Below are positions 7,360 to 32,140 of a DNA stretch of 64,000 nucleotides, piece by piece. Position 1 is the stretch's first letter; each line of letters starts with the position of its first letter. Origin of the DNA: an uncultured Chloroflexia bacterium. Lineage in GTDB: Bacteria; Chloroflexota; Limnocylindria; Limnocylindrales; CSP1-4. The stretch covers positions 1,760,001 to 1,824,000 of the forward strand of contig CAWEZH010000002.1 of NCBI GenBank assembly GCA_963813535.1, in the 5' to 3' direction. Position numbers and translations under genes: made by a program. The notes under the pieces were generated by a model, which did no database searches, was not told the origin of the DNA, and saw only the letters and a list, made by a program, of their open reading frames with translations.

Positions 7360-10300
7360 TCAGGCCCGGATCGGTACGCCGGCGGCGAGGTCGGCCCCGA
7401 CCACGGCGGTCGCCTGCGTCGTCGCCGCGACCGGGGTGACCGGCTCGACCAGCCAGGTATCGGCGGCCAGCGATTCCGACAGGATCAGCCGCCGAGCGAG
7501 CGTCGACCCGGCCGCGGCCTGATCCTGCAGCAGTCCGAACAGCTCGTCGAAGCGCTCGGTGCCGTCCGCTCGTGACCGGAGCGCCTCACCCAGCCTGATC
7601 GCGGCGACGCTCTCGCCGTGCAGCGCGGCTGCGTGCCGGCCGTTCGGGTCGTAGAGATACGCGCGTCCGCCCGTCATCCCGGCGCCGAAGTTCGCACCGA
7701 TCGGACCAAGGACCACCACCACGCCACCCGTCATGTACTCGCATCCGTGCGCGCCGATGCCCTCGACGACCGCCGAGGCCCCGCTGTTGCGGACCGCGAA
7801 GCGCATCCCGGCACGGCCGACCAGATGGACGCGACCGGCGGTCGCGCCGTAGAGCACGGTGTTCCCCGCGATCGCCTCGCCCCCGGCCAGTACCGGGAGG
7901 TCGGCCTCGGGACGGACGACGATCCGCCCACCGGACAGGCCCTTGGCCACGTAGTCGTTCGCCTGGCCCACCAGTGTCAGCTCGATGGCGCCGGAGGCGA
8001 ACGCGCCGAACGACTGGCCTGCGGCGCCGCGAACCTCGAGCCTCACCGGGCCACGGAGCTCGCCGCGCTCGATGGCGCCCGTCAGACCCGCACCGAACGA
8101 CCGGTCGGCCGTGGACAAGCGAAGCCCCGACGCGGCGACCGGCCCCTGGTCGCGGAAGGCCGCCGCGACCCGGACCTCGAGCGGGGATGCGGGAGCGTGG
8201 CGCGCGGTCCTTGCCGGTATGGCCGGATCGGCTCGGCGGGCGTCATCGGCCGACCATCTCGCGGCGCCCACCACCTGGGCCAGCTCGATCGCGGCGGCAC
8301 GGACCGGCCGCAGCGCCCGCCGGCTCTCCCCGACGACCTCGCCGACCGAGCGTGCGCCGACGGCAGCCAGCTCACGACGCAGGTCCTCGGCCAGGGCCAG
8401 GAAGAACGTCTCGACCATCTCGGGCGTGCCCCGGAACTTGGCCCGCAGGTCCTCGCGCTGCGTCGCGATACCCGTCGGACAGGTGTCGAGGTGGCACTGG
8501 CGCGCCATGTCGCAACCGATCGCGACCAGCGCCGACGTGCCGAACGCGAATTCCTCCGCGCCAAGGAGCGCGGCGACCAGCAGGTCCCGACCGGTCTGGA
8601 GCCCTCCATCCGTCCGCACGGCCACGCGATCGCGCAAGTCGTTCCGGAGCAGGACCTGGTGGACCTCGGCGAGACCGAACTCCCAGGGCGCACCGACATG
8701 CTTGATCGATGACAGCGGCGACGCCCCCGTACCGCCGGCGTGGCCGGACAGGTGGATGTACCCGGCACCAGCCTTGGCGACGCCCGCCGCGATGGTCCCG
8801 ACGCCGCGCGACGCGACGAGCTTCACGCCGATCCGCGCACCGGGATTGATCGCCCGCAGGTCGGCGATGAGCTGCGCCAGGTCCTCGATCGAGTAGATAT
8901 CGTGGTGCGGCGGCGGGCTGATGTAGCTCTGCCCGGCCTGCCCACGGCGCAACGCCGCGATGTACGCGGTCGCCTTGCGACCGGGCAGCTGACCGCCTTC
9001 GCCGGGCTTGGAGCCCTGGGCGATCTTGATCTCGAGCTGATCGGCCCGTGCCAGGTACGTGGCGGTGACCCCGAACCGCGCGGAGGCGACCTGCTTGATC
9101 CGGGCGTCGCGGCGTCGGCCGTCCGGGCCAGCGGCGTACCACGCCGGGTCCTCGCCACCCTCGCCGGTGTTCGCGGCACCACCCGCGCGCTGGATGCCGA
9201 TCGTCAGCGCCTGGTGCGCTTCCGGCGAGAGGGCCCCGACGCTCATGGCCGAGACGACGAACCTGTGGGCGATCGACCGCGCGCTCTCGACCGAATCGAC
9301 CGTCACGGGAGGGCCGAGCCGACGTAGCCGAAGCTCGTCCCGAGGCGTCGATGGCGCGCCGGCGGGCCGCGACAGCGCGGTCCGATACCGCTCGAGCGCG
9401 CCGTCCAGTCGCGGCTCGCCCTCGACCGTCGGCGTCGCGCCCGACAGGACCTGGATCTCGCTCGCGATCCGCGGTGCGAAGAGGTGGGCCTCGCCGTCGG
9501 CGCGGAACCGCGCGAATCCCGGATCGGGGAGTCGAGGCTCGCGGCCGGGGATGAGTGCCGGGAGGGCCAGCGCTGCATCGCGGCGACGGACGACACGCGC
9601 CCCGATGTCGTCGAGCGTCGTCCGACCGGGCCACGCCGCGACGGTCGGGAAGCAGCGCGCGATCGCGTCCGGCGCCAGATCCACCGTGTCCACGAGGGCG
9701 CCGCCGATGTAGCTGGCGATCGCGCTGATGCCCATCCGCGCGAGGGTCTTCCGCAGGCCTGCGGCGAAGGCGTCGACGAGGTTCTCGATCGCGTCTGCCG
9801 GCGTGAGCTCCTCGGCACCGCGCGACCCGGCAAGCTCGGCCGCGACCTCGAGGGCAAGGCGAGGGTGGACGACCGTGGCGCCCACGGCGAGGGTCATGGC
9901 CATCGCGTGGACATCGAGGACGTCGGCGGCGTCGACCACGAGGTCCGTGCGGCCACGCAGGCCGGCGTCGGTCAGCGCGGTGTGCACCGCCCCGACGGCA
10001 AGGATCGACGGCACGGGCAGGCGATCGGTCGATGTCGACGAATCGCTGATCAGCAGGATCTCGATGCCCGCCTCGCTCGCGGCGACGGCCTCGGCTGCCA
10101 GGCGCTCGAGGCGACGCGGGAGCCCCTCGGCGCCGTCGTCGACCGGCCACGTCGCGTCCAGCACGCGCACCCTGCGCCCGCCGGCGAGCGCCACCTCGAG
10201 GAGACCGTCGAGGTCGGCCACGATCGGGCGCTCGAGGCGCAGCGTGCGTGGCCCTCGAGGGGGTCCGCCCAGCAGTGCCGGGCGCCGCCCGAGCTCGACT

Positions 10301-11925
10301 CGAAGGTCCATGACGACCCGCTCGCGCTCCGGGTCGATGGCCGGGTTGGTCACCTGTGCGAAGGCCTGGCGAAGGTGGTCGGCCACCGGCCGGTCCACGC
10401 GACCGCGGCCGGCCGTGGGCGTGTCGTCGCCCATGCTCCACAACGGCTCGTGCCCCTCGAGCGCCATGGTCTTGATATCGAGCCGTGCCTTTTCGGCGTC
10501 GAGCCCGGCGAGGTAGCGCAAGCTGTGATCGAGCGGACCGCGACCCTCGATCACCGCCGCCGCGACCTCGGCACTGTCCTCGTGGAGCGGCCGTGGTGCG
10601 TCGTGGATCGGCAATCGACGCAGGACGTGTGCCTTCGCGTCGGTGTCCTCGAGGATCGCCCGCCGCGCCGGCTCGACGAGGAGCAGCTCGCCGGGGCCGA
10701 GCCGGCCCCGCCGGATCGTGTCGCGCGCTTCGAACGGCACGGCGCCGGCCTCGGAGGCGACGGCGACGAGCCGGTCTCGGGTGACGGCGAAGGCGGCGGG
10801 CCGGAGGCCATTGCGATCGACCAGGGCGCCCACCCGTCGACCGTCGGCGAAGACGATCGCTGCCGGCCCGTCCCACGGCGCGAGCATCCCGGCCGCTCGA
10901 CGCCGGAGCGTGGCGACGTGCGGGTGTGGCGCACGACGCAGACCGACGGCCTCGGGGATGGCCGCCAGCAGCGCCGGCGCGAGGTCCCAGCCGGTCGTGG
11001 TCAGGAGCTCGAGCCCCTCGTCCAGGGACAGCGAATCCGAGCCGTCCGCGGTCAGCAGCGGACCGGCATCGAGCAACTCGGCGGCGATGGGCTTCGCGCC
11101 GCGGTCGCGCGTCCGCCCGCGGACCTGCTCGCGGTTTCCGCGGACCGTGTTGATCTCGCCGTTGTGGGCGATCGACCGGAACGGCTGGGCCAGCCGCCAG
11201 ATCGGTGTCGTGTTCGTGGCATACCGCTGGTGGAACACGGCGTAGGTGACGTCGAGCTCGGCTCGGAGATCCGGATACAGGTCCGCCAGGCGTGTTCCGG
11301 CGACGAGGCCCTTGTAGACGACCGTCCGGCACGAGGCCGATGGGATCGATAGGCCGGCGATGCTGCCACGCGCTACGCGAGCGGCGGTCTCCAGTCGGCG
11401 TCGAGCGACGACCAACCGGCGCTCGAATGCCCTATCGGTCAGCCCGTCCGGCCGGATCACGATCGCCTGCGCCACGAACGGGCGCGAGGCCGACGCCACC
11501 GCACCCAGCGCGATCGGCTCGAACGGCACGGATCGCCAGGCCACTACGGGGAGACCGCTCTGTGCGAACACGTCCTCGACGAGGCCTCGGCTTGCACGAC
11601 GTGCAGCCGCCCCACGCGGCAGGAATGCCATCACGACGCCCGGCCGATCCACCGCCCGGGGGCCGGCGATCAGCGCGAGCACCGACGAGGTCAGCGGGAG
11701 CGCGACACCCGCCCCATCGCTGGACTCGCCGTCAGCCGCGAACGCCCCACGATGGGCGAGTGCCGCCAGACCGGCCAACGCGAGTGGAAGGACCTTCCCC
11801 GCGGAGCGCCCGCCGGCATCGGCGACGAACCCCACGCCGCACGCGTCGTGTTCGAACCGCGAGTCGTAGAGCGGTGCACGCGTGTCGCGGCGGTCGGATC
11901 GATCGCGTCGGTCGGTGGCGTCCAT
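7360..11925 (-). CDS. gltB: Glutamate synthase large subunit
   Basis: HDACGVGF (Ntn Cys), HNGEINT, AMSVGALS, IKQVASARFGV, QGSKPGEGGQLPG, PPPHHDIYSIEDL, CHLDTCPTGI, GCEYMTGG. Confidence 0.97.
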   Translation of the reverse strand: MDATDRRDRSDRRDTRAPLYDSRFEHDACGVGFVADAGGRSAGKVLPLALAGLAALAHRGAFAADGESSDGAGVALPLTSSVLALIAGPRAVDRPGVVMAFLPRGAAARRASRGLVEDVFAQSGLPVVAWRSVPFEPIALGAVASASRPFVAQAIVIRPDGLTDRAFERRLVVARRRLETAARVARGSIAGLSIPSASCRTVVYKGLVAGTRLADLYPDLRAELDVTYAVFHQRYATNTTPIWRLAQPFRSIAHNGEINTVRGNREQVRGRTRDRGAKPIAAELLDAGPLLTADGSDSLSLDEGLELLTTTGWDLAPALLAAIPEAVGLRRAPHPHVATLRRRAAGMLAPWDGPAAIVFADGRRVGALVDRNGLRPAAFAVTRDRLVAVASEAGAVPFEARDTIRRGRLGPGELLLVEPARRAILEDTDAKAHVLRRLPIHDAPRPLHEDSAEVAAAVIEGRGPLDHSLRYLAGLDAEKARLDIKTMALEGHEPLWSMGDDTPTAGRGRVDRPVADHLRQAFAQVTNPAIDPERERVVMDLRVELGRRPALLGGPPRGPRTLRLERPIVADLDGLLEVALAGGRRVRVLDATWPVDDGAEGLPRRLERLAAEAVAASEAGIEILLISDSSTSTDRLPVPSILAVGAVHTALTDAGLRGRTDLVVDAADVLDVHAMAMTLAVGATVVHPRLALEVAAELAGSRGAEELTPADAIENLVDAFAAGLRKTLARMGISAIASYIGGALVDTVDLAPDAIARCFPTVAAWPGRTTLDDIGARVVRRRDAALALPALIPGREPRLPDPGFARFRADGEAHLFAPRIASEIQVLSGATPTVEGEPRLDGALERYRTALSRPAGAPSTPRDELRLRRLGPPVTVDSVESARSIAHRFVVSAMSVGALSPEAHQALTIGIQRAGGAANTGEGGEDPAWYAAGPDGRRRDARIKQVASARFGVTATYLARADQLEIKIAQGSKPGEGGQLPGRKATAYIAALRRGQAGQSYISPPPHHDIYSIEDLAQLIADLRAINPGARIGVKLVASRGVGTIAAGVAKAGAGYIHLSGHAGGTGASPLSSIKHVGAPWEFGLAEVHQVLLRNDLRDRVAVRTDGGLQTGRDLLVAALLGAEEFAFGTSALVAIGCDMARQCHLDTCPTGIATQREDLRAKFRGTPEMVETFFLALAEDLRRELAAVGARSVGEVVGESRRALRPVRAAAIELAQVVGAARWSADDARRADPAIPARTARHAPASPLEVRVAAAFRDQGPVAASGLRLSTADRSFGAGLTGAIERGELRGPVRLEVRGAAGQSFGAFASGAIELTLVGQANDYVAKGLSGGRIVVRPEADLPVLAGGEAIAGNTVLYGATAGRVHLVGRAGMRFAVRNSGASAVVEGIGAHGCEYMTGGVVVVLGPIGANFGAGMTGGRAYLYDPNGRHAAALHGESVAAIRLGEALRSRADGTERFDELFGLLQDQAAAGSTLARRLILSESLAADTWLVEPVTPVAATTQATAVVGADLAAGVPIRA

Positions 11926-12063
11926 CGATGTGGCGTCTCCGCGAGGCGGTGGAGCGGCCGCCGCCCGGTCCGGACGGGGGCCGCATGTGTGTGGGAACGC
12001 CGGGGAGCTTCGGCCGATCGAGTGCCGGGAGGAGCCGTTCCCGACCGGCCGTTGCCCCTGCGG

Positions 12064-13284
12064 CTAGGACTGGTAGGCGACCTCGCCGTGGGTCGCGAGG
12101 TCGATGCCGATCTCCTCGTCGCTGGCCGACACGCGGATGCCAAGGACCAGGTCGACGACCTTGACGATGACGAACGTCGAGACGACCGCGTAGGCGACCG
12201 TCGCGACGACGGCGATCAGCTGGTTGACGAGCTGCTGGGCGTTGCCTTCGAGCAGGCCCGTGTAGGCCTCCTGGATGGCAGCGGACGCGAACACGCCCGT
12301 CGCGATCGCGCCGAACATGCCACCCACCCCGTGGACCGCGAAGACGTCGAGCGCGTCGTCGATCTTGAGGCGGGATCGGAGGAGCGTCGCGCTGTAGCAC
12401 AGCCCGCCGACGACGAGGCCGATGATCAGCGCGCCGCCGACGCCGACGAAGCCGGACGCCGGGGTGATGGCGACGAGGCCCGCCACGGCACCGCACGCGG
12501 CACCGATGACGCTGACCTTGCCCTTGTGCAGGTAGCTGGCGAGGACCCAGGTGATCGTCGCCGCTGCCGCGGCCGTGTTGGTGACCATGAACGCGTTGGC
12601 GGCGAGGCCGTTGGCGGCCACCGCCGAGCCGGCGTTGAAGCCGAACCAGCCGAACCACAGCAGTCCCGCGCCGAGCACGGTCATCGGCACGTCGTGCGGC
12701 TCCATCGGCTCGCCGTTGACCGCCCGTCGGCCGATCAGCAGCGCGACGATCAGGGCCGAGACGCCCGAGCTGATATGGACGACGGTCCCGCCGGCGAAGT
12801 CGAGCGCACCGAGCTTGAAGAGCCAGCCGTCGACCGACCAGACCCAGTGGGCCAGCGGCGAGTACACGAGGATCGACCAGAGGATCGTGAACAGCACGAA
12901 CGCGCCGAAGCGCTTGCGCTCGGCGAAGGCGCCCGTGATGAGTGCCGGCGTGATCGCCGCGAACATCAGCTGGAACGCAGCGAACAGGACGAAGGGGACG
13001 GTCGTCGCGTATGTCGCCGACGGTTCGAGTCCGACGCCGTTGAACATCGCGAAGTCGAGACCGCCGATCAGCCCGAGGCCGGCGACGTCAGGCCCGAACG
13101 CGAGCGTGAACCCGACGATCACCCAGACGACGCTGACCAGGGCAAGGCCGAAGAAGCTGTGCATGATCGTCGAGAGCACGTTCTTGCGGCGGACGAGGCC
13201 GCCATAGAACAGAGCGAGCCCCGGCAACATGATCATCACCAGGGCTGTCGACATCAGGAGCCACGCGGTATCGCCAGTGTCCAT
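12064..13284 (-). CDS. amtB: Ammonium transporter
   Basis: MDTGDTAW, DFAGGTVVH, WFGWFGFNAGS, DDALDVFAVHG (twin His conserved). Confidence 0.97.
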   Translation of the reverse strand: MDTGDTAWLLMSTALVMIMLPGLALFYGGLVRRKNVLSTIMHSFFGLALVSVVWVIVGFTLAFGPDVAGLGLIGGLDFAMFNGVGLEPSATYATTVPFVLFAAFQLMFAAITPALITGAFAERKRFGAFVLFTILWSILVYSPLAHWVWSVDGWLFKLGALDFAGGTVVHISSGVSALIVALLIGRRAVNGEPMEPHDVPMTVLGAGLLWFGWFGFNAGSAVAANGLAANAFMVTNTAAAAATITWVLASYLHKGKVSVIGAACGAVAGLVAITPASGFVGVGGALIIGLVVGGLCYSATLLRSRLKIDDALDVFAVHGVGGMFGAIATGVFASAAIQEAYTGLLEGNAQQLVNQLIAVVATVAYAVVSTFVIVKVVDLVLGIRVSASDEEIGIDLATHGEVAYQS

Positions 13285-13334
13285 CCATTCCTCCCGGCAA
13301 GATCCGGACACCCGGTCCGACGGGTGTGGATGGA

Positions 13335-22773: not shown

Positions 22774-23189
22774 CCGCCCGCCAGGTCGTCGTCGGCGAGG
22801 ACGGTCGGGCGAAGGTCTACCGGCCACTCCCCGACGAGGTCCGCATCGCCGCGGTCCGGGCCGGTCTCGAGGCGTATGGGGCGGGCGACTTCTTCGAGGC
22901 GCATGAACACATGGAACCGGCCTGGATGGGCACGGCCGACCTTGCCGAACGAAACCTCATCCAGGGACTCATCAAGGTCGCCGCCGCCGACGTGCATGCG
23001 GTGCGCGGCAACCCGCCCGGCATCCGCCGGAACCTCGAGGGCGCTCGCGACCGATTGCGCTCCGGCGTCGGTGGGTCGATCACCGGCGTCGACCTCGACG
23101 TCGATGGTCTTCTTGCCGCGATCGACACGAGACTGGCGGGCACGACTGACCTGTCCACGCCCATCACCATCGGATGGAGGATGCGATGA
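22770..23189 (+). CDS. DUF309 family protein
   Basis: FFEAHEHMEPAW...QGLIKVAAA..H. Confidence 0.85.
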   Translation: MTARQVVVGEDGRAKVYRPLPDEVRIAAVRAGLEAYGAGDFFEAHEHMEPAWMGTADLAERNLIQGLIKVAAADVHAVRGNPPGIRRNLEGARDRLRSGVGGSITGVDLDVDGLLAAIDTRLAGTTDLSTPITIGWRMR

Positions 23190-23554
23190 CCGCAGGCCCC
23201 GGGACCCCATCGATCGACGCGACGGAGGCCGAGCGCCGCCTGCGCGAGGACCCCGATCAACCGCTACTGGTCGATGTGCGTGAGCAGCACGAGTTCGACG
23301 AGGTCCGCGCGCCGGGCGCGGTGTTGATGCCGATGTCGACGTTCGCGACACGGGCCGGCGAGCTGCCGACGGACCGGCCGCTGATGATCGTGTGTCACAC
23401 GGGCGCCCGATCCTCGGCCGTCACCGGCTTCCTCGTGCGCTCGGGCCGGACCGATGTGGTCAACGTCGCCGGCGGGATGGAGGCGTGGGAGCGCGGCGGG
23501 TTGCCGGTCAGGCATGGCACACCGGAAGCCGGCGAGGGCGCCCTGCCAGGTTGA
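23186..23554 (+). CDS. Single-domain rhodanese
   Basis: LVDVREQHEF, active-site CHTGARS, NVAGGMEAW. Confidence 0.9.
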   Translation: MTAGPGTPSIDATEAERRLREDPDQPLLVDVREQHEFDEVRAPGAVLMPMSTFATRAGELPTDRPLMIVCHTGARSSAVTGFLVRSGRTDVVNVAGGMEAWERGGLPVRHGTPEAGEGALPG

Positions 23555-23585: not shown

Positions 23586-25049
23586 CTAGCGGACCCGCCG
23601 GATGACGCGGGAGACGAGGGCGCGAGCCTGCGGCTTGTGCGCGTACGCCCAGCCGATGATGATCAGGATGATGAAGTTGACCGTGCCCACGCCGGCAGCG
23701 TTCAAGTAGCCGAGCTGCTGGCCGATCTCGCCGTCGATCTTGAGCCCCGGGACGGTGGCGCCGAACGGACCGAGCTGGAAGAACGGCGAGGTCGGTGAGG
23801 TGTTCGACCGCAGGCTCGACGTCAGGATCTCGTCGGCCGACTCGCCGCCGACGAGGACGGCGTTCGGGCCGGTCACGAGGGCGCTGGATCCTGTCAAGCC
23901 ATACGGGAGGTCACTCTGTGGCAGGTGGGTCCACTCGAGGACCGTACCGTCGCTCGTCGGGATCGACCAGAAGACCTCGGGCCGGGGGCCTTCGCTGTCG
24001 GCCCCGCCCATGATGTAGAGCGTCCCGTTGGCGGTGTATCCAGCAGCGTCGTCACGTGCAGCCGGCAGGTTCCACGCGTTGTCGATGTCCCAACCGATGA
24101 CCTTGCCCTGCTCCGGGTTCTCCGGGAAGCCCTCGGGGGCCTCGAGCCCGATCCTGCCGCGCTGGACCGCCCCGACGGGACCGGCTTCGTCATGGCCGCC
24201 ATACAGCCAGATGAAGTCGCCGACGACCGCTCCGAGAGCGTCGGCCTGCGGGCGCGCGAGCGGAGCCTCCACTTCCCACTCACCGAGCGCACCCTGGGCA
24301 TCCAGCGGGCTCTTGTACGTCGTGGTGACCGGGCCGTTCTCGCCTTCCCCGCCGACCACGACCAGGCCGTCGGCCGTAGAGAGCGCCACGGCCTGGGCGA
24401 GCGGTTCGGGCAGGGCCAGATCATCGACCGGCTGCCATTCCCCGAGGACGCTCGTGGCCGGATCGGCGGCGATCGAGAAGACGGTCGTTGTCGGTGCGCC
24501 GTCGGCGTCGTAGCCGCCGATCACGTACACCGTGCCGGACACCGACGTCACGGCTGCATCGCTGCGCGGCTCGGGCAGCTCCGGCCCCGGCTGCCACGTG
24601 TCGAAGTTGCCGGTGCCCGACGTCTGCGCGACATACACCGTGGAGGTGGCGGCCTCGCCGTCCGATCCGCCGATGTACAGGATCTGCGCGCCGAGCTGGA
24701 GCGCCGTCCCGTCGGTCCGCGGTTCGGGCAGTGCGAGCTCGGAGGGGGACGGATGCCATGGCACCAGGGCCCCGCGCGGCGCCGGGCACGGCAGCGTCTC
24801 GTTCTCCGACGAGCAGAGATTGATCGGGGACCAGACGAGCAGACCGAGATCGACGGTCCGGTTCACCGTGAAGTAGTAGGCGCGGTCTGGGAGGTAGCCC
24901 AGCATCAGGAGGATGATGATCAGCCAGACGAACGACTTGAGGCTCGCCCACGCCCAGCCGTCTGCGTCGAGCAACCCGAACATCGCGCGCCGCTTGGGCA
25001 CGACCAGCCCTGGCCCGAGGGCGGGACGCGTGGTCCCTGCGGCGCTCAT
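23586..25049 (-). CDS. Membrane-anchored Kelch-repeat beta-propeller protein
   Basis: Six GG blades (YIGG, VIGGY, VVGGE, LYGGH, IMGGA, LVGGE) between N- and C-terminal TM helices; ATGA overlap with the cytochrome c gene. Confidence 0.8.
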   Translation of the reverse strand: MSAAGTTRPALGPGLVVPKRRAMFGLLDADGWAWASLKSFVWLIIILLMLGYLPDRAYYFTVNRTVDLGLLVWSPINLCSSENETLPCPAPRGALVPWHPSPSELALPEPRTDGTALQLGAQILYIGGSDGEAATSTVYVAQTSGTGNFDTWQPGPELPEPRSDAAVTSVSGTVYVIGGYDADGAPTTTVFSIAADPATSVLGEWQPVDDLALPEPLAQAVALSTADGLVVVGGEGENGPVTTTYKSPLDAQGALGEWEVEAPLARPQADALGAVVGDFIWLYGGHDEAGPVGAVQRGRIGLEAPEGFPENPEQGKVIGWDIDNAWNLPAARDDAAGYTANGTLYIMGGADSEGPRPEVFWSIPTSDGTVLEWTHLPQSDLPYGLTGSSALVTGPNAVLVGGESADEILTSSLRSNTSPTSPFFQLGPFGATVPGLKIDGEIGQQLGYLNAAGVGTVNFIILIIIGWAYAHKPQARALVSRVIRRVR

Positions 25050-26116
25050 CCGGCGGTCAGGGTGCCGGTCATGTTCGGATGGACGGAACAGTTGAACGGG
25101 TAGTCACCGGCGTCGAGCGCGGGCACGGAGTAATCGACCTCGGTCGGGCCAGTGACGATCTCGCCGGTGAACACGCTCGTCCCGCTGCCGTCCTTGATCT
25201 CGACGTTGTGGGGGACACCGTCCTCCGTGTTGGCGAAGTGGATGACAAAGGCCTCGCCGGCCGGTGCGGTCGCTTCCGACTGGTCGAACGCGCTGCTCGA
25301 GCTCGCCGAGATATCGACGACCTGGGCGTTCGGATCGATCGACTGCGCCGGGCCCGGACTCTGGCTGCTGCCGCCGGTCAACTCGTCCGTCCAGCAGTCC
25401 GGGAATGGGGTGGCCCCCGGCTCGGGCAGGTAGTTCGGATCGCGCCACCCGGTGAACGTCAGGACCTTCCCGGTCTGCGGGTCGATCTTCGGGTCGAGCA
25501 GGTGCTCGTCGCGGACGATGTACTCGCGGTCGTTCGTCGCCAGGAGGAACGCGACGAGCTCCTCGACCTGACGATAGTTCAGCGGTCCGGGCGGATTGCC
25601 CTCGTTCGACCAGACGGGCATCTTCGACTTCGGGTCACCACAGACGTACCGACCACCGACGGTCAGCACGTTCCGGATATAGGCCTCGCTCAGGTGGGCG
25701 AAGAGCTTGTCCTGACGGTTCAGGGTCGGCCCCTCCCCGCCCTCGCCGTCCACCCCGTGGCACCGCGCGCAGTTCGCCTGATAGACGTTGTATCCACGCT
25801 CGACTCGTGAGACCTGCTGGGCATCGATCTCCTGGGCCTGTCGGGCCACGGTCAGCCCGCCCGGGGCACCCAGCTCATAGAACCAGTACAGCGAGATGAA
25901 CAGGATGATGACGATGACCGCCAGGAACCCGACCCACCGAGCGTTCGCCGACTGGCGGACGACCTGGGCCGCGCGCTCCGGCGTGAACTCGGTCTTGCGC
26001 ACCGGCGGTGGCGAGGTGAACCGTTCGACGAGCGAGCGATCCTCGGGCGGGCGCACGGCTGGCAGACGCTGCTCGGGCGCGCCTTCCTCCGGCTCCCGTC
26101 CGGGCGTATCGGTCAT
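25046..26116 (-). CDS. Membrane-anchored cytochrome c fused to a type-1 copper cupredoxin
   Basis: TM helix, CARCH heme motif, distal KMP Met; C-terminal HNV...FNCSVHPNM (His/Cys/His/Met). Confidence 0.9.
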   Translation of the reverse strand: MTDTPGREPEEGAPEQRLPAVRPPEDRSLVERFTSPPPVRKTEFTPERAAQVVRQSANARWVGFLAVIVIILFISLYWFYELGAPGGLTVARQAQEIDAQQVSRVERGYNVYQANCARCHGVDGEGGEGPTLNRQDKLFAHLSEAYIRNVLTVGGRYVCGDPKSKMPVWSNEGNPPGPLNYRQVEELVAFLLATNDREYIVRDEHLLDPKIDPQTGKVLTFTGWRDPNYLPEPGATPFPDCWTDELTGGSSQSPGPAQSIDPNAQVVDISASSSSAFDQSEATAPAGEAFVIHFANTEDGVPHNVEIKDGSGTSVFTGEIVTGPTEVDYSVPALDAGDYPFNCSVHPNMTGTLTAG

Positions 26117-26155
26117 CGGTCTCCTCGATCGACGATGGGTCGCGTCACGGCACGC

Positions 26156-26830
26156 TCAGATGCAGCCGGTCGGGGTAAGGGGCGGGATGATGCCGGGCTG
26201 GCCGAGCGCCACGGGAAGCGGTCCGAGCGTGATCTTGCCGGTGTCGATATGGAGGGATCCGTTGCCGTCGACCATGATCGAGAAGCGGTCCATGCCGCGC
26301 GGCGCCGGACCGTATTGCGCGCCGTCGGCCTTGATCCCCAGTCGGTCGTACCGGGAGCCGTGGCAGGGGCATTCCATCCAGAAGTTCTTCAGGCACGGAT
26401 TGGGCTTACAGCCGAGGTGCGGGCAGCGCTGGTAGAGCGCGCGCACGTTGAGCGCCGATCCATCGCCCGTCGTGTCCTCACCCGGCGTGAAGCGCTGCTG
26501 GGAGGGGTCCTTCAGGACGACGAACGCGCGTGCCTCGGCGTAGTACGCGGGGAACCCTTCGGCGATCGGCAACACGCTGTTCGCGGTCTTGACGTCATCC
26601 AGGGTCCCGATCTCGAGGACGGCCCCGAATCCCTTCCGGAGGCTCGGCCAGGCGAACGCGAGCGTGCCGGCGAGCGCCTCGACGGTCGCGAGGCCGATGC
26701 CGGCCCCGAGGGCGACACGCATCAGCTGGCGACGGGACATCCCCTGGACCTGCTCCTTGCGGAGGGCCTTGATCGCCTGCGGTGTCAGGGCAGCGGGCTT
26801 GTCGATCGATTCGACGTGGTAGTTGCTCAT
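26156..26830 (-). CDS. Rieske [2Fe-2S] subunit of a Rieske/cytochrome b complex
   Basis: Tat motif SRRQLM, TM helix, CPHLGC and CPCHGS boxes, GPAPR. Confidence 0.95.
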   Translation of the reverse strand: MSNYHVESIDKPAALTPQAIKALRKEQVQGMSRRQLMRVALGAGIGLATVEALAGTLAFAWPSLRKGFGAVLEIGTLDDVKTANSVLPIAEGFPAYYAEARAFVVLKDPSQQRFTPGEDTTGDGSALNVRALYQRCPHLGCKPNPCLKNFWMECPCHGSRYDRLGIKADGAQYGPAPRGMDRFSIMVDGNGSLHIDTGKITLGPLPVALGQPGIIPPLTPTGCI

Positions 26831-26835
26831 GGTCC

Positions 26836-27441
26836 CTACAGCGAGAAGTACATGCCGGGTGCGGTCACGAACGGGATGATGAAGGTGTACCCGGGGCCGC
26901 GGAAGAAGATCCCGACGAAGGTCAGGACGAGCCCGAGGATGCAGAACAGCGTGAACAGCACGACCGCTGTCTTCCGCTGCGAGGGGCGAGTGGCCAGGAT
27001 GTCACCGCGGTCCACATACGGGATGAGCGCCGCTCCGACGAGCACGAAGGTCGGCGCGAGGACGCCTGCAACGACCGGGTGCAGGTAGGCCAGCAGCTCC
27101 TGCAATCCAAGGAAGTACCAGGGCGCCTTGGCGACGGCAGGCGTGATGTTGCCGTTCGCAAGCTCCTCCAGGGGCGCGTTGATGAACAGGCCCATCAGCA
27201 AGAGGAAGATCGACATCACGCCGGCCGCAAGGAACTCGATCGACAGCAGGTGCGGCCAGGTCATGACCGTGTCGTCGGGTTCCTTCTGGACGCGGACGAC
27301 GGCGTCCTGCTTGACCAGCGCGAGCAGCCGATACGGCCGCGCCGACATCGGCACGCGCTGCTTATCGATCTCGGTCCGCCGCGCCGGATCGACGGGCAGC
27401 ACCTCCCGCCGCGTGGTGGTCGGATCCTTCGTATCGGTCAC
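26836..27441 (-). CDS. Cytochrome b C-terminal subunit (subunit IV/PetD-like)
   Basis: WPHLL, APLEELAN, AKAPWYF (PEWY-equivalent), IPYVDR, 3 TM. Confidence 0.9.
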   Translation of the reverse strand: MTDTKDPTTTRREVLPVDPARRTEIDKQRVPMSARPYRLLALVKQDAVVRVQKEPDDTVMTWPHLLSIEFLAAGVMSIFLLLMGLFINAPLEELANGNITPAVAKAPWYFLGLQELLAYLHPVVAGVLAPTFVLVGAALIPYVDRGDILATRPSQRKTAVVLFTLFCILGLVLTFVGIFFRGPGYTFIIPFVTAPGMYFSL

Positions 27442-27466
27442 GTCGAACTACCTTGCGGGCCGATAG

Positions 27467-27562
27467 GAGCGCCCAGCGCAAGGCGGCGGCGAGCACGCGA
27501 CCGAGCGCACCTCAAGGTGCGTGAGGGAGCGCGCGCAGGCAACAACGCCGCGATGGGTGCTC
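27467..27562. repeat. ~96-bp imperfect palindrome (REP/MITE-like) between the cytochrome b genes
   Basis: Ends GAGCGCCCA / TGGGTGCTC; central hairpin GCGCACC-TCAA-GGTGCGT. Confidence 0.5.
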
Positions 27563-28289
27563 ATAGCGGCCCGCTTATCCCACCGTCTTTGCGAATGCGC
27601 CAGAAGTGCACCGTCAGGAAGATGGCCGCGATGAGCGGCAAGAACACGACATGCCCCACATAGAACCGGATCAATGTGTTCTGGCCGACCTCGACGCCGC
27701 CGAGAAGGATCCGGTTCACCGGTGTGTTGAAGATCGGGACGTAGCCACCCATGTTCGTGCCGATGGTGATCGCCCAGAAGGCGATCTGGTCCCACGGCAG
27801 CAGGTAGCCCGTGAAGCTGAGCATGATGGTCAGGAAGAGCAGCACGACCCCGACGACCCAGTTGAACTCGCGGGGCGGCTTGTAGGCTCCGTGGTAGAAG
27901 ACCCGCATCATGTGCAGGAACACGAAGAACACCATGAGGTGGGCGCCCCACCGGTGGACGTTGCGTGTCAGCAGCCCGAACGCCACCTCGCTCTGGATCT
28001 CGAGGATGTTCGTATAGGCGAGCGTCGCCGACGGGACGTAGAAGAACATCAGGTAGACGCCCGTCACCGTCAGCACCAGGAACAGGAAGAAGGACAGTCC
28101 GCCGAGACAGAAGGTGTAGGCGAATTTGACCGCGTGCTGGCGGACACGGACCGGGTGGATATGCAGGAAGACGTTGTTCATGACCGCGTACGCGCGCGAT
28201 CGTTCGTCCCGCGGGTAGGGCTGCCGGAAGAGGGATCGCCAGACCGGGCTACGCCGGATCGTCTGGTCGACCCGCTCCAGGAAACTCAC
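27561..28289 (-). CDS. Cytochrome b6-type N-terminal subunit
   Basis: FCLGG (heme ci Cys), HRWGAH...LH, GYLLPWDQ, H-x14-H in helix D, C-terminal GISGPL. Confidence 0.95.
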   Translation of the reverse strand: MSFLERVDQTIRRSPVWRSLFRQPYPRDERSRAYAVMNNVFLHIHPVRVRQHAVKFAYTFCLGGLSFFLFLVLTVTGVYLMFFYVPSATLAYTNILEIQSEVAFGLLTRNVHRWGAHLMVFFVFLHMMRVFYHGAYKPPREFNWVVGVVLLFLTIMLSFTGYLLPWDQIAFWAITIGTNMGGYVPIFNTPVNRILLGGVEVGQNTLIRFYVGHVVFLPLIAAIFLTVHFWRIRKDGGISGPL

Positions 28290-30121
28290 CGGGCTCCTCC
28301 TGCCACGCCGGGGGTCCCGGCCAGCTGCGCATCCCGGTACGACTCCTTGTAGAGCCGACCGTCGGTCGAGATCTCCTGCAACTCGAACCGCTCCATCGTA
28401 ATGGCGTCGAACGGGCAGCGCTTGACGCAGAGTGCGCAGCGGATGCAGCGCTCCTCATCGAGGATCATCGCCCCGCCGTTCTCCCAGCCGTAGGCCTCGT
28501 CGAGCTCCGGGAGGAGGCCCTCCGACTTGAGCGTATTGATGTCGACCATGTGGATGACGCCCTCGGGACAGACATCCGCGCAGGCGCCGCACAGGACGCA
28601 GCGGAACGGGTCGAACCAGATGTTGTAGTTGCACATCAGGCAGCGCGTCGACTCGGCGACGGCGCCCGTCGCGTCGTACCCGAGCTCGACCGGCGTGTTG
28701 AAGTTGACGATCGGGTCGGTCGACGGCATGCGCGCCTGAAGCGGGACCATCGGGATGTGCTGGCGTGGCAGTACGTCGTACAGCTCCGGCATGTCATGGC
28801 GCCACGAGCTCGTGACCTTCACGTTGGCGGCCACACTGACGTCCGCCCGGCCGGCGAGGTAGCGGTCGATGGCATAGGCCGCCTTCTTGCCGTGGCCGGC
28901 GGCCTCGATCAGGGTCGTGGGTCCGGTCACGAAGTCGCCGCAGGCGAAGACGCCCCGGACGTTCGTCGCGTATGTGGCGGGGTCGACCTTCACGCGGCCG
29001 CGGTTGATCTCGAAGCTCGCCTCGACCGGAAGGAACGTGAGGTCGGCCGCCTGCGACACGGCTGGGATGACGGTCTGGGCGGCAACGACGAACTCCGACC
29101 CCTCGATGGGGATCGGCGACCGACGTCCCGAGGCGTCGGGCTCGCCCAGCCGGTTGCGGATGAAGCGGACGCCCGTGACCTTGCCGTCCTCACCGAGGAC
29201 CTCGATCGGGCTGGCGAGGAACTCCATGCGAACGCCCTCGCGCTCGGTCTCACCGAGCTCCTCCTCGTCGACGACCAGCTCGGAGCGCGTGCGTCGATAG
29301 GCGATGGTGACGTTCTCGGCACCGTGCCGAAGGCTGGTCCGCGAGCAGTCCATCGCGGTGTAGCCACCGCCGATGACGACGACGTCGTTGCCGACTTCGA
29401 TCGGTTGACCGAGGTTCGCCCGCTTCATGAAGTCGACGCCGTAGTCGACACCCTCGAGGTCGGCGCCCGGGATGTCGAGAGCGACCGCGTCCATGGCGCC
29501 GGCCGTGATGGCGATCGCGTCGAAGTCGCGCTGCAGCTCCTCGAACGGAAGGTCCGGCCCGACCGACGTGTCGTAGACGAACGTGACGCCGAGCCGCTCG
29601 ACCAGCCGGACGTCCATCTCGATGGCCTCGCGCGGCAGCCGGAACGCGGGGACGCCGATGAGCATGGTCCCGCCGCCATACGGAAGGCTGTCGAAGACCG
29701 TGCACCGATAGCCCTTCACTGCGAGCTCGCGCGCGACGGCGAGTCCCGCCGGGCCGGCGCCCACGATCGCGACGCGCTCCTCGCGCGGCGTGATGTCGGG
29801 CATGACGTCCGGGATGCCCGATGCCTCGTGCCACTCGACGAGGAACCGCTTCATGGCCCGGATGGCGAGCGGCCGATCGATATCACCGCGGCGACATGCC
29901 CGCTCGCACGGGGCCGAACAGACGTACGAGCACATCGCCGCGACCGGGTTCGGCTCGCGCGACAGGATGTACCCCTCCTCGAACCGCCCCTCGGCGGCGA
30001 GATTGAGGTAGCCGCGGCAGTTGGTGCCGACCGGACACGCTTCCTGGCACTCGATGTTGCACTGCAACCAGGAGGCGTCGACAGGCTGGACGAGGAATTC
30101 CTGGGCGGGATCGATTGCCAA
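28286..30121 (-). CDS. GltD/NfnB/DsrL-like NAD(P)H:acceptor Fe-S flavoprotein with C-terminal 2x[4Fe-4S] ferredoxin
   Basis: CxxxCxxxCP, CSYVCSAPCERAC, GAGPAG, GGGYTAMD, YRRT, GDFVTGP, RCLMC, CVLCGACADVCP, CIRCALCVKRCP; TTG start after SD GGAAAGG. Confidence 0.9.
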   Translation of the reverse strand: MAIDPAQEFLVQPVDASWLQCNIECQEACPVGTNCRGYLNLAAEGRFEEGYILSREPNPVAAMCSYVCSAPCERACRRGDIDRPLAIRAMKRFLVEWHEASGIPDVMPDITPREERVAIVGAGPAGLAVARELAVKGYRCTVFDSLPYGGGTMLIGVPAFRLPREAIEMDVRLVERLGVTFVYDTSVGPDLPFEELQRDFDAIAITAGAMDAVALDIPGADLEGVDYGVDFMKRANLGQPIEVGNDVVVIGGGYTAMDCSRTSLRHGAENVTIAYRRTRSELVVDEEELGETEREGVRMEFLASPIEVLGEDGKVTGVRFIRNRLGEPDASGRRSPIPIEGSEFVVAAQTVIPAVSQAADLTFLPVEASFEINRGRVKVDPATYATNVRGVFACGDFVTGPTTLIEAAGHGKKAAYAIDRYLAGRADVSVAANVKVTSSWRHDMPELYDVLPRQHIPMVPLQARMPSTDPIVNFNTPVELGYDATGAVAESTRCLMCNYNIWFDPFRCVLCGACADVCPEGVIHMVDINTLKSEGLLPELDEAYGWENGGAMILDEERCIRCALCVKRCPFDAITMERFELQEISTDGRLYKESYRDAQLAGTPGVAGGAR

Positions 30122-30364
30122 GCGGGGCGTGCCTTTCCGTGAGGTGGTCGGGCGCGACGTGATGATCGGCGGGCGCCGACGGTCCGAATCTACCATCGGC
30201 CTCGTAAGCGCTGCAAAACGGGATGACCGGCGCGCGCTCCCTCGGGCGCCCACCGGCGATCGCCGCGACGGCCGCCGGAAAGTTGACGTTCGCTACGATC
30301 CGCAGCTACGCTGCGGACCGCACGTGCTCGGTGAGGAGCACGATCGGATGGAGTTGGCCACGGC

Positions 30365-32140
30365 GTGACCGGGAGCGAGCTCGCCTTCCTGGCGATAGGG
30401 CTGATCCTGGGCGTTGCCGCCTGCGCCGTGCTGATCGCGATCCTCCGGTCGCTCCTTTCGCGTCCGCGTGGTGTGCGTGTCACGGTGGTCCCGGATGCCG
30501 TCCCGAGGCGTCGCCCCGCGACCCTCGCGAACGACGCCTTCACGGAATCCCCGACCGCCGCTCGCCCGGCCTTTCGCGGTCCGGCAGACCGCCGCGGGTA
30601 CGCCGACGAGTCCGGCGGCTCGACGCCGGCGACTCGAACGCCTGTTCTCCCACCCCAGCCCGGGACGATCATGGAGCCTGCGTTCCGACTGGTCGGGCCC
30701 TCGTCGGACGTCCAGGGTCCGGTACCGGCGGCGGGGCAGGCACGGATCGCGACGGCACAGGGAGTCCCGGTCGCGACCGGGATCGACCCGATGCTCACGG
30801 CCCTGCGAGCGAGCGCCGACGCACCCGACTCCCCGGCGGGCGGGGGGCCAGGTGACAGCGGTGCCTTGGTCGGCGCCACCGTCCGTCCGCTCGCGCTGGC
30901 GTCGCCGGCTTCCAGCGCACGCACGCGGACCGCGAAGCCAGGTGACCGATCCGCGTCGAGGACGGCCAAAGCTGCCGCCACGGCGACGATACCGACCACC
31001 CCAGGCACGCCGACCGATGCAGGGGGCGGACCCTGCGGCGATGTGCGCCGTCTCGCCGACGAGCGCTGTGAGCTCGCCACCCGGGCGCGCGCCCAGGCAG
31101 GCGAAGCAGAAGAGGTGCATCGAGTCGCCCGACGGGCGTACGACGCGAACGCAGCGGAGATGACCGCGGCAGCCGCGGCCGTGGACGCGCGAAGTGTCCG
31201 CGACGAGAAGGACTTCGTGCAGGCCAGGTTCCGCGCGGGCCGGGCCGGCGCCCGAACGGCCGAAGACATCGAGGCGGCGGCCCGAGACTGGCTCCACGAG
31301 ATCAATCGGATCAACGCCGGCACCACCGACGCGACGGCCACCCTGCAGAGGACGCGGGCGGAGGCGCCCGAGATGGGCGCCCAGCTCGAGCGGACGGCAC
31401 TCGCGCTGGACCACGCACGGCTCGGGGCCGAGGCTGCCGAGGCGGCATGCCTGGCCGCGCGCCAGGCGCTCGCGGAGTGCGAGGAGCGCGCCGCCGGTCG
31501 GACGCCGAGCGCAGTACCGACCGGGCCCGGACCGGATCAGGACCGGATCGACACGACATCCGACACCCTCATCGCAGCGCTCCGAGCCGGTGCGTCGCCG
31601 AGGATCGTGCGGCTCCTCGGCGGCGATCGTGACGCGATGCATGAGGCGGTCAATGTCCTGGCCGGAGACGATGCCACCGAGCGCCGTCGCTGGCAGGTCG
31701 CGATGTCCGATCTGGTCGATGCCATCCTCGCCGACGCGATCGCGGCGTCGGCGCTCGAGTTCCCGGCGGATCATCCGTTCTGGGGGCCGTTCAGTCGGAC
31801 GCAGGCGCGCGACATCGCTGCTGCGCTGTCATCGCTGGGCTACCGGTTCGACGGCCTTGGGGGCTGGGTCGACGATCGGCACCCATCCCAGCGTGACCTG
31901 TCGCTGGCGCTGGGCTATGCCGGCCTGGACCCGATGCGGATGCGCACGTGGCCGAACGACGCCGAGATGGCAGGCCTGTTCAGCGAGGTCCAGGTCGCCG
32001 CGACGGAACACCTGGCGAGTGCCGCGGGCGACCTAACGCTGGGCGAACTCGTGACGATGCTCGGGCGACGAGCCGATGGCCTGGCCGAGATCTGGAACGC
32101 CTGGGGTCGCGTCCGGCCCGTCCTCCTCGACGGGTCCTGA
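30365..32140 (+). CDS. Hypothetical membrane-anchored protein with Pro/Ala linker and coiled-coil
   Basis: Long ORF with an N-terminal TM helix, Ala/Glu/Arg-rich helical middle and a globular C-terminus. Confidence 0.7.
   Translation: MTGSELAFLAIGLILGVAACAVLIAILRSLLSRPRGVRVTVVPDAVPRRRPATLANDAFTESPTAARPAFRGPADRRGYADESGGSTPATRTPVLPPQPGTIMEPAFRLVGPSSDVQGPVPAAGQARIATAQGVPVATGIDPMLTALRASADAPDSPAGGGPGDSGALVGATVRPLALASPASSARTRTAKPGDRSASRTAKAAATATIPTTPGTPTDAGGGPCGDVRRLADERCELATRARAQAGEAEEVHRVARRAYDANAAEMTAAAAAVDARSVRDEKDFVQARFRAGRAGARTAEDIEAAARDWLHEINRINAGTTDATATLQRTRAEAPEMGAQLERTALALDHARLGAEAAEAACLAARQALAECEERAAGRTPSAVPTGPGPDQDRIDTTSDTLIAALRAGASPRIVRLLGGDRDAMHEAVNVLAGDDATERRRWQVAMSDLVDAILADAIAASALEFPADHPFWGPFSRTQARDIAAALSSLGYRFDGLGGWVDDRHPSQRDLSLALGYAGLDPMRMRTWPNDAEMAGLFSEVQVAATEHLASAAGDLTLGELVTMLGRRADGLAEIWNAWGRVRPVLLDGS

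Follow-up and report, generated by a model that had tools for sequence, protein, structure and literature searches.

For more than ten years two questions on Rieske/cytochrome b complexes have awaited an answer, namely the role of heme cn and the ability of such complexes to reduce NAD(P)+. Both have so far been argued only from bacteria of anaerobic ammonium oxidation (anammox), which are hard to handle. In the accessible text of PMC12954380 the anammox Rieske proteins have potentials of +303 mV (Kuste4569) and +335 mV, subunit IV is modelled with five helices, and co-migration of the flavoprotein with the membrane core is cited for Kuenenia only. The 'APWY clade' of these complexes was defined with Chloroflexi included, and in the available part of that paper no member is characterised (Kao and Hunte 2014, PMC4122944). 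Cytochromes b of subfamily G are found together with large NAD(P)-binding iron-sulfur (Fe-S) proteins, and the tree of Dibrova 2017 has many further cases, as far as the accessible text of PMC5600118 goes. That such cytochromes b are paired with NAD(P)-binding Fe-S proteins in non-anammox organisms too has been published before. A pairing of this type was found in a 64,000 nucleotide stretch (the window) of contig CAWEZH010000002.1, from an uncultured soil bacterium of the order Limnocylindrales (class Limnocylindria, Chloroflexota). Six genes on the minus strand (window 23586-30121) encode an Fe-S flavoprotein with nicotinamide adenine dinucleotide phosphate (NADP(H)) and flavin adenine dinucleotide (FAD) sites, followed by the subunits of a b6-type complex. 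Judged from the genes, the flavoprotein is very probably a docked partner at the cytoplasmic (n) side of the complex, where it would exchange electrons with the n-side hemes.

The flavoprotein has 611 amino acids (28286..30121, minus strand) and its gene runs directly into that of cytochrome b6 (242 amino acids, 27561..28289, minus strand). The stop of the first and the start of the second share a GTGA overlap (28286..28289, minus strand), with GGAGG immediately 5' of it, and the same adjacency was found in relatives. This four-nucleotide overlap had been reported in an earlier note made from the sequence of the window, together with one operon of flavoprotein, cytochrome b6, subunit IV, Rieske protein, cytochrome c-cupredoxin fusion and Kelch protein. 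Both observations held. All six open reading frames (ORFs) were present at their positions and in the named order, and the Pfam and NCBIfam labels agreed with the earlier label for each of them. The flanking genes are a convergent rhodanese gene (23174-23554, plus strand) and a divergent ORF (30365-32140, plus strand), so that the six genes make up a single unit. The six-gene order was identical in five of five wider loci of relatives, which places the arrangement far from chance.

The source genome is 3.28 Mb in three contigs and is 93% complete. The flavoprotein homologues that bear names in the homologue listing are metagenome-assembled genomes (MAGs) of 'Candidatus Limnocylindrales bacterium' (Chloroflexota). 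In 36 of 41 relatives an orthologue of the flavoprotein was present, either complete or in contig pieces, with an identity of 81% or more. The remaining relatives comprised one genome with an interrupted copy of 55-68% identity and four genomes (59-77% complete) with none. The interrupted copy (G001:C15:162689-164532) lies in pieces, one of which has two TGA codons, and is possibly a pseudogene or an assembly error. The cytochrome b6 gene directly followed the flavoprotein gene in 27 of 29 loci of relatives, the other two stopping at a contig end. Two of the five wider loci are from genomes of 1.1-1.4 Mb belonging to a second family, and the flavoprotein-cytochrome b6 pairing is retained in genomes of just 1.1 Mb. 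Across the wider loci the flavoprotein was the best-conserved product (83-91% identity), with 81-92% for cytochrome b6, 62-80% for the Rieske protein and 41-64% for the Kelch protein.

For the phylum the same 301 Chloroflexota genomes were drawn twice. In the class Limnocylindria both proteins were found in 26 genomes, neither in six and only one of the two in none. The cytochrome b6 gene adjoined the flavoprotein gene in 24 of 24 Limnocylindria loci. The earlier note had named missing co-conservation with cytochrome b as a result that would refute its reading, and that refutation failed, the flavoprotein being strictly co-conserved and co-lost with cytochrome b6 in the class. The six genomes with neither protein (G193, G211, G220, G229, G247 and G279) belong to genera g5 and g6 of family f1 and are 93-95% complete.

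Outside Limnocylindria, full-length homologues of 40-45% identity sit amid unrelated genes, and a cytochrome b6 gene was adjacent in 0 of 17 loci (from 14 genomes, which include the unpublished G081). This type of cytochrome b6 was also held by 35 of the 37 non-Limnocylindria Chloroflexota genomes with an orthologue (34 of 36 without G081). Of these 35 proteins, 34 had 59-64% identity and one was in two pieces. The two pieces overlap (G275:C5:53396-54114) and may represent a pseudogene or an assembly error. An operon of cytochrome b6, subunit IV, Rieske protein and cytochrome c was present in all three unlinked-type genomes examined (G154, G207 and G069). Across Chloroflexota the flavoprotein family is associated with this type of cytochrome b6, whether the genes are linked or in trans. 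The two exceptions to co-occurrence are of family f58, and in the one examined NuoH and the GltD-like part form a single fused protein. This 1004-amino-acid ORF (L168:6393-9407, genome G286) combines NuoH (NADHdh) with Fer4_20 and Pyr_redox_2, lies between nuoD and nuoL, and is a different way to attach an NADPH-type module to complex I. As the sampled genomes are kin from about six families, the counts overstate independence. The pattern of co-occurrence is that of an accessory partner which needs the complex without being needed by it.

The flavoprotein tree comprised 43 sequences of flavoproteins and GltD-like proteins, chosen from among the loci collected, and none was dropped after building. 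A clade of 25 rows was recovered with ultrafast bootstrap (UFBoot) and SH-like approximate likelihood ratio test (SH-aLRT) support of 100/98. It contains all 12 linked non-anammox sequences, all 12 unlinked Chloroflexota sequences and one from an Alphaproteobacteria MAG. The Brocadia cluster flavoprotein joins this clade next, with support of 94/90 in the careful tree and an SH-aLRT of 96 in the quick tree. Short GltD-like proteins, Nfn-like proteins and two complex I-fused forms lie outside, as do full-length proteins of the same domain order from Bacillota, Chlorobium and a delta-proteobacterium. The flavoprotein has 39% identity to the Brocadia cluster flavoprotein over residues 14-578 and is the orthologue of the anammox Kuste4570-type subunit. 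The identity and the grouping in the trees uphold the link to the anammox complexes that the earlier note had drawn.

In the cytochrome b6 tree (22 rows) Limnocylindria grouped with exactly the three other sampled flavoprotein-bearing Chloroflexota families with a support of 97, and two sampled flavoprotein-free families were placed apart. This tree is congruent with joint inheritance of the flavoprotein and cytochrome b6. Among the 80 matches listed, the flavoprotein was paired with cytochrome b6 in seven loci, which is a sample and not a frequency. These were from two further Limnocylindria, three Acidobacteriota, one Nitrospirota and one Eisenbacteria. One of the Acidobacteriota pairings is in a Chloracidobacterium MAG (L043) and has a fused long cytochrome b.

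The flavoprotein was characterised with Pfam, NCBIfam, motifs, AlphaFold2 (AF2), Foldseek and hydropathy. In Pfam it matched Fer4_20, Pyr_redox_2 and two Fer4 families. Its layout is an N-terminal 2x[4Fe-4S] part, FAD and NADPH Rossmann folds, an RCxxC motif and a C-terminal 2x[4Fe-4S] ferredoxin domain. The latter is an extra domain and presumably resembles that of DsrL. The motifs are GAGPAG at residue 121, GGGYTAMD at 251, YRR at 275, RCLMC at 493 and CxxCxxCxxxCP at 508 and 559, and every motif cited in the earlier note, here and in the other subunits, could be located at a definite residue. Cys25, 29, 68, 72 and 76 as well as Cys508-514 and 559-569 were invariant in an alignment of 34 flavoprotein sequences. 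The protein is predicted to have sites for four Fe-S clusters, for FAD and for NAD(P). Hydropathy gave no transmembrane segment, and the tail (590-611) is disordered.

The AF2 model had a predicted local distance difference test (pLDDT) score of 87.2. With this model Foldseek returned NfnABC (9bov_A, E 8e-51) and NfnI (5jca_L, template modelling (TM) score 0.82 by target). By sequence and fold the closest solved structures were the NADPH-binding subunits of NfnABC, StnABC (StnC), NfnI (NfnB) and Xfn, then GltD and DPD. The N-terminal dicluster and two Rossmann domains are shared with the NfnB/NfnABC/StnC/GltD family (PDB 5jca, 4ylf, 9bov, 9n5u, 8oh5 and 6s6s), with TM scores of 0.79-0.82 by target and a root mean square deviation of 2.2-2.6 Å. 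The YRR/GGGxTAxD NADPH site is common to both. Unlike the NfnB and GltD systems, the operon is without an NfnA, NuoF-type or GltB partner. The FAD could bifurcate as in NfnB, with electrons from NADPH split between a high-potential acceptor, the n-side hemes or quinone, and low-potential ferredoxin, the latter reduced through the C-terminal dicluster. The best structure and sequence matches, being bifurcating subunits of NfnABC, StnABC and NfnI, speak for this. It is nonetheless very unlikely. The four cluster sites form a single linear set, and the NfnA or NuoE/F-like partner that serves the second path in NfnAB and NfnABC was not found in the operon. GltD and DPD have the same fold without bifurcating, and no need for ferredoxin is evident in the operon of an aerobic heterotroph.

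An amtB-gltB unit is located elsewhere in the window (7360-13311, minus strand). Its GltB has 1521 amino acids (7360-11925) and matched NF008730 with 1232 bits against a cut-off of 1047. No gltD adjoined gltB, and none was free-standing elsewhere in the source genome. Only two GltD-like regions were found in this genome and both are inside respiratory operons. The flavoprotein might on this evidence act outside the complex, as a soluble co-transcribed NADPH oxidoreductase serving as GltD for the GltB 16 kb away, or as a reductase of ferredoxin or another acceptor. Its orthologue also stands alone among unrelated genes in the other Chloroflexota classes. Such a role is highly improbable given the four-nucleotide overlap and the co-loss with cytochrome b6. 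The flavoprotein scored below all GltD cut-offs (TIGR01317, 198.7 against 447.7; TIGR01318, 262.3 against 482.95; TIGR01316, 325.4 against 471.75), lies apart from the short GltD-like rows of the tree and has the extra ferredoxin domain. GltB was kept in both of the two genus g5 genomes examined that have neither flavoprotein nor cytochrome b6. No gltB was found beside the unlinked orthologues in the six loci scanned.

The membrane core belongs to the 'APWY clade' (subfamily G of Dibrova) of Rieske/cytochrome b complexes and is of the b6c type, and all five features tested for this assignment were found. Cytochrome b is split, with Cytochrome_B on the 242-amino-acid ORF and Cytochrom_B_C on a separate ORF of 201 amino acids (subunit IV, 26836..27441, minus strand). 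Cytochrome b6 was identified by Pfam (Cytochrome_B, 1.7e-46), the NCBIfam ExtP model (293.3 bits against a cut-off of 290), alignment and motifs. Its heme ligands are His112/126 and His213/228, which were invariant in nine of nine aligned sequences, and the 14 residues between the helix D histidines make it a b6-type protein. The cysteine for heme cn (called heme ci in the earlier note) is Cys61 in FCLGG, and this CxGG cysteine was present in eight of the nine. Both the cysteine and the b6-type histidine spacing had been read correctly from the sequence. An N-terminal LHxHP motif contains His43 and His45, with His43 invariant in nine of nine. These two histidines were considered as a marker of flavoprotein-bearing complexes and rejected, the motif also being found in flavoprotein-free genomes.

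Subunit IV was identified by Pfam (Cytochrom_B_C), alignment and hydropathy. It has three hydrophobic segments and a cytoplasmic N-terminal extension of approximately 60 amino acids. The Qo motif APWY lies in APWYFLGLQE, which was invariant in eight of eight sequences, as was Glu69. The Rieske [2Fe-2S] protein (224 amino acids, 26156..26830, minus strand; Pfam Rieske, alignment and motifs) has the boxes CPHLGC at 136 and CPCHGSRY at 154, with Ser159 and Tyr161. It carries a twin-arginine signal anchor (RR at 33).

On the acceptor side the cytochrome c-cupredoxin fusion has 356 amino acids (25046..26116, minus strand; Pfam Cytochrom_C 6.3e-9 and Cupredoxin_1 1.9e-8, motifs and hydropathy). It is membrane-anchored by a single hydrophobic segment (55-86) and monoheme (CARCH at 116). 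The cupredoxin domain is type-1-copper-like, with a histidine followed by CSVHPNM at 343. The last gene encodes a Kelch beta-propeller protein of 487 amino acids (23586..25049, minus strand; Pfam Kelch families and hydropathy) with a hydrophobic segment at either end (31-55 and 446-470). The Kelch gene was in five of five wider loci of families f1 and f2 and was found only in the order with these families. It was not found in f3 or other classes in the loci examined.

The source genome contains one cytochrome b match, one heme-copper oxidase subunit I (COX1) located 12 kb upstream of the window, and a nuo operon. No match to the NrfD/alternative complex III family was found in this genome, which is 93% complete. 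With a single cytochrome b and no NrfD family protein, the complex is the only candidate quinol:cytochrome c oxidoreductase. As sole complex III it has to support the normal aerobic flow of electrons, regardless of any further role. The nuo operon contains a 1313-amino-acid ORF (G000:C3:917946-921887, minus strand; L135:7946-11887), located after a NuoE-like gene and before nuoJ, K, L, M and N. It combines NuoF (FMN and 4Fe-4S), a NuoG-type 2Fe-2S part, a GltD/NfnB-like NADPH flavoprotein and a ferredoxin dicluster. Second matches of 36-41% identity were found in nearly all of 40 relatives, which suggests that the complex I fusion is conserved. PntB and G6PD were each present in 38 of 41 relatives, including 15 of 16 genomes of 1.1 Mb. 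Dependence of the NADPH supply on this complex was considered and rejected, PntB and G6PD being retained.

The quinone markers MenD, MqnA/D, MenA and UbiD were searched for in seven genomes (G000-G004, G025 and G026). MenD passed the cut-off in one of seven, MqnA/D in none, MenA in none and UbiD in one. The passing MenD and UbiD were both in G002 only, and MenA gave sub-threshold UbiA-like matches in six of seven. The source genome had no marker above the cut-off although complex I, the Rieske/cytochrome b complex and heme-copper oxidase are present.

A tentative mechanism is the reduction of NADP+ by quinol through quinone-based bifurcation of the anammox type, to which not quite an even chance is given. 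At the outer side quinol would be oxidised at the APWY Qo site. The first electron would pass to the Rieske centre, which is of the high-potential sequence type, then to the membrane-anchored cytochrome c-cupredoxin and finally to the one heme-copper oxidase. At the cytoplasmic side the flavoprotein would link bH, heme cn at Cys61 and perhaps a heme at His43 to NADP(H), with four [4Fe-4S] sites and FAD forming the path in between. With a reduced quinone pool and a high-potential chain that O2 keeps oxidised, the second electron of quinol could go through the flavoprotein to NADP+ and not to quinone. Bifurcation would then yield NADPH and the ordinary Q cycle would stay available. In favour of this direction are the orthology to the anammox subunit, a Rieske sequence of the high-potential type and a flavoprotein that is extremely well conserved.

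Flow in the reverse direction from the same docked flavoprotein is possible but rather unlikely. Electrons would move from NADPH through FAD and the four Fe-S sites to the n-side hemes and to quinone at Qi. The flavoprotein would be a built-in NADPH dehydrogenase giving net NADPH:cytochrome c oxidoreduction via the Q cycle, akin to the cyclic route proposed for ferredoxin-NADP+ reductase (FNR) and b6f. Electron transfer from NADPH to quinone would be strongly downhill and would need no special potentials. The 1313-amino-acid fusion wires a second GltD/NfnB-like NADPH module into complex I and, together with the second matches in relatives, suggests that NADPH is a respiratory donor in the class. 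The presence of G6PD means that NADPH is made catabolically, and FNR and cyanobacterial b6f are purified together (Zhang 2001, cited in the accessible text of PMC5600118). Against this flow, it would waste energy compared with the proton-pumping complex I, an argument made for anammox in the accessible part of PMC12954380. It would also leave a Rieske protein with both high-potential determinants unexplained, and PntAB could already balance NADPH.

Several observations weigh against the docked flavoprotein as a bifurcating NADP+ reductase. By a rough energy balance, reduction of NADP+ would be close to equilibrium when it has to work against a normal membrane potential. A low-potential quinone is required for the energetic argument, and MenD, MqnA/D, MenA and UbiD were all below the cut-off in the source genome. 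PntB and G6PD are present, so NADPH can be made otherwise. Twelve Chloroflexota genomes have a close cytochrome b6 and no flavoprotein match at E<=1e-95. The LHxHP motif is kept in the cytochrome b6 of genomes without the flavoprotein, which indicates that the core works alone and that His43 is not specific to the flavoprotein. No fusion to a cytochrome b or Rieske domain was found among 13 longer flavoprotein homologues. The Alphaproteobacteria MAG in the 25-row clade (L047, a long branch) has only ordinary cytochromes b of 25-34% identity in its genome. Finally, the heme cn cysteine is missing in two flavoprotein-bearing lineages, the linked Eisenbacteria (L042) and the unlinked Chloroflexota family f15 (L182). 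The earlier note had proposed a wire specifically to heme ci, and with two such lineages lacking the cysteine this goes too far.

The G+C content of the window is 69-70%. The six ORFs have a G+C content at the third codon position (GC3) of 0.83-0.91, and their codon-position G+C pattern is that of real genes. Two of the junctions are four-nucleotide overlaps, the second being an ATGA (25046..25049, minus strand) shared by the stop of the cytochrome c-cupredoxin gene and the start of the Kelch gene. The remaining three gaps are 119, 5 and 39 nucleotides. The flavoprotein starts with TTG at 30121, giving 611 amino acids, and an alternative GTG upstream at 30253 would give 655. A length of 611 was that of most of the 120 flavoprotein homologues listed, which fits the TTG start. 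The divergent neighbour (30365-32140, plus strand) is a 591-amino-acid ORF rich in alanine and arginine with no Pfam match at 1e-5. A scan for promoters and terminators gave no promoter-like and two terminator-like sites against 0.5 and 2.0 expected.

No sequencing run recorded as RNA was found among the runs examined. Two runs, for which a label of metatranscriptomic complementary DNA (cDNA) is a guess, gave short near-identical contigs in which DNA carry-over is possible. The flavoprotein/cytochrome b6 overlap is spanned once (28182-28379, one mismatch), as is the cytochrome c/Kelch overlap (24965-25150, one mismatch). The contigs that bridge the overlaps are at most a weak hint of transcription.

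A literature search returned no paper on this complex in Limnocylindria, and supplementary files may hold more. The search also returned nothing on the cytochrome c-cupredoxin and Kelch add-ons, on such a complex as the sole complex III of an aerobe, on trans-encoded orthologues or on co-loss. The flavoprotein link was not mentioned in the accessible text of PMC6037941, PMC8097209, PMC13053071 and PMC3578206. The earlier note had taken the six-subunit combination to be undescribed. With the core already published, this goes too far; only the two add-ons and the setting as sole complex III of an aerobe were not found in print.

If the flavoprotein just feeds NADPH into the quinone pool, the complex would be a modest variation. 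If aerobes make NADPH from quinol, this would be a new mode of respiration-coupled reductant supply, and the anammox hypothesis would extend to aerobes, here a class of abundant soil and freshwater bacteria. It would bear on the NADPH balance of dominant uncultured soil and lake bacteria. A wider reading is that in the class, and in lineages of no fewer than four other phyla, the only complex III serves as a quinone-based bifurcating NADP+ reductase. With an Nfn-type complex I, NADPH and not NADH would be the respiratory hub, and the quinone may be unusual, as no marker of a known quinone pathway was detected. This wider reading is doubtful. As the pairing is present in Chloroflexota and in a MAG of Chloracidobacterium, a genus of which one member is in culture, the question can be tested outside anammox.

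The locus resembles three described groups of complexes. The cyanobacterial and chloroplast b6f with FNR likewise has a b6-type complex, heme cn and an n-side NADP(H) flavoenzyme, and corresponds to the alternative in which NADPH feeds Qi. FNR differs in having an unrelated fold and no Fe-S wire and in not being encoded with petB, and no membership of this group is claimed. The APWY clade and subfamily G, including the ExtP type of Geobacter, share the APWY Qo motif and a short cytochrome b with CxGG, and the ExtP model was passed. The accessible text of the papers on this clade contains no Limnocylindria, trans-encoded orthologues or co-loss, and their supplements may list more.

The third likeness is to the anammox complexes. 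Those of Kuenenia stuttgartiensis (Kuste4569-4574 and Kustd1480-1485) share with the locus a split b6-like cytochrome b with CxGG, a subunit IV and a Rieske protein with Ser/Tyr. In both the anammox complexes and Limnocylindria a gene for an NAD(P)/FAD flavoprotein with four Fe-S sites lies directly upstream of cytochrome b6. The Brocadia genome has two cytochrome b6 genes with 53-57% identity by HMMER and 49-55% by tblastn. Cluster 1 has the order Rieske, flavoprotein, cytochrome b6 and subunit IV, as in Kuste4569-4572, and cluster 2 is Kustd1480-like. His43 of the Limnocylindria cytochrome b6 aligns with the extra-heme ligand proposed for anammox in the accessible part of PMC12954380. Ser159 and Tyr161 of the Rieske protein are those of the Kuste4569 type as found in Brocadia, whereas the Kustd1480 type has Phe. 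Unlike anammox, the Rieske gene comes after subunit IV. Subunit IV ends after its third hydrophobic segment without the two extra C-terminal helices of a five-helix protein; in Brocadia and Nitrospirota it has a C-terminal extension of approximately 70 amino acids. The acceptor side has one CxxCH cytochrome c-cupredoxin and a Kelch protein in place of the hexa- and octaheme cytochromes and HAO-like protein of anammox. The host, unlike the anammox bacteria, is an aerobe with a heme-copper oxidase and a single cytochrome b.

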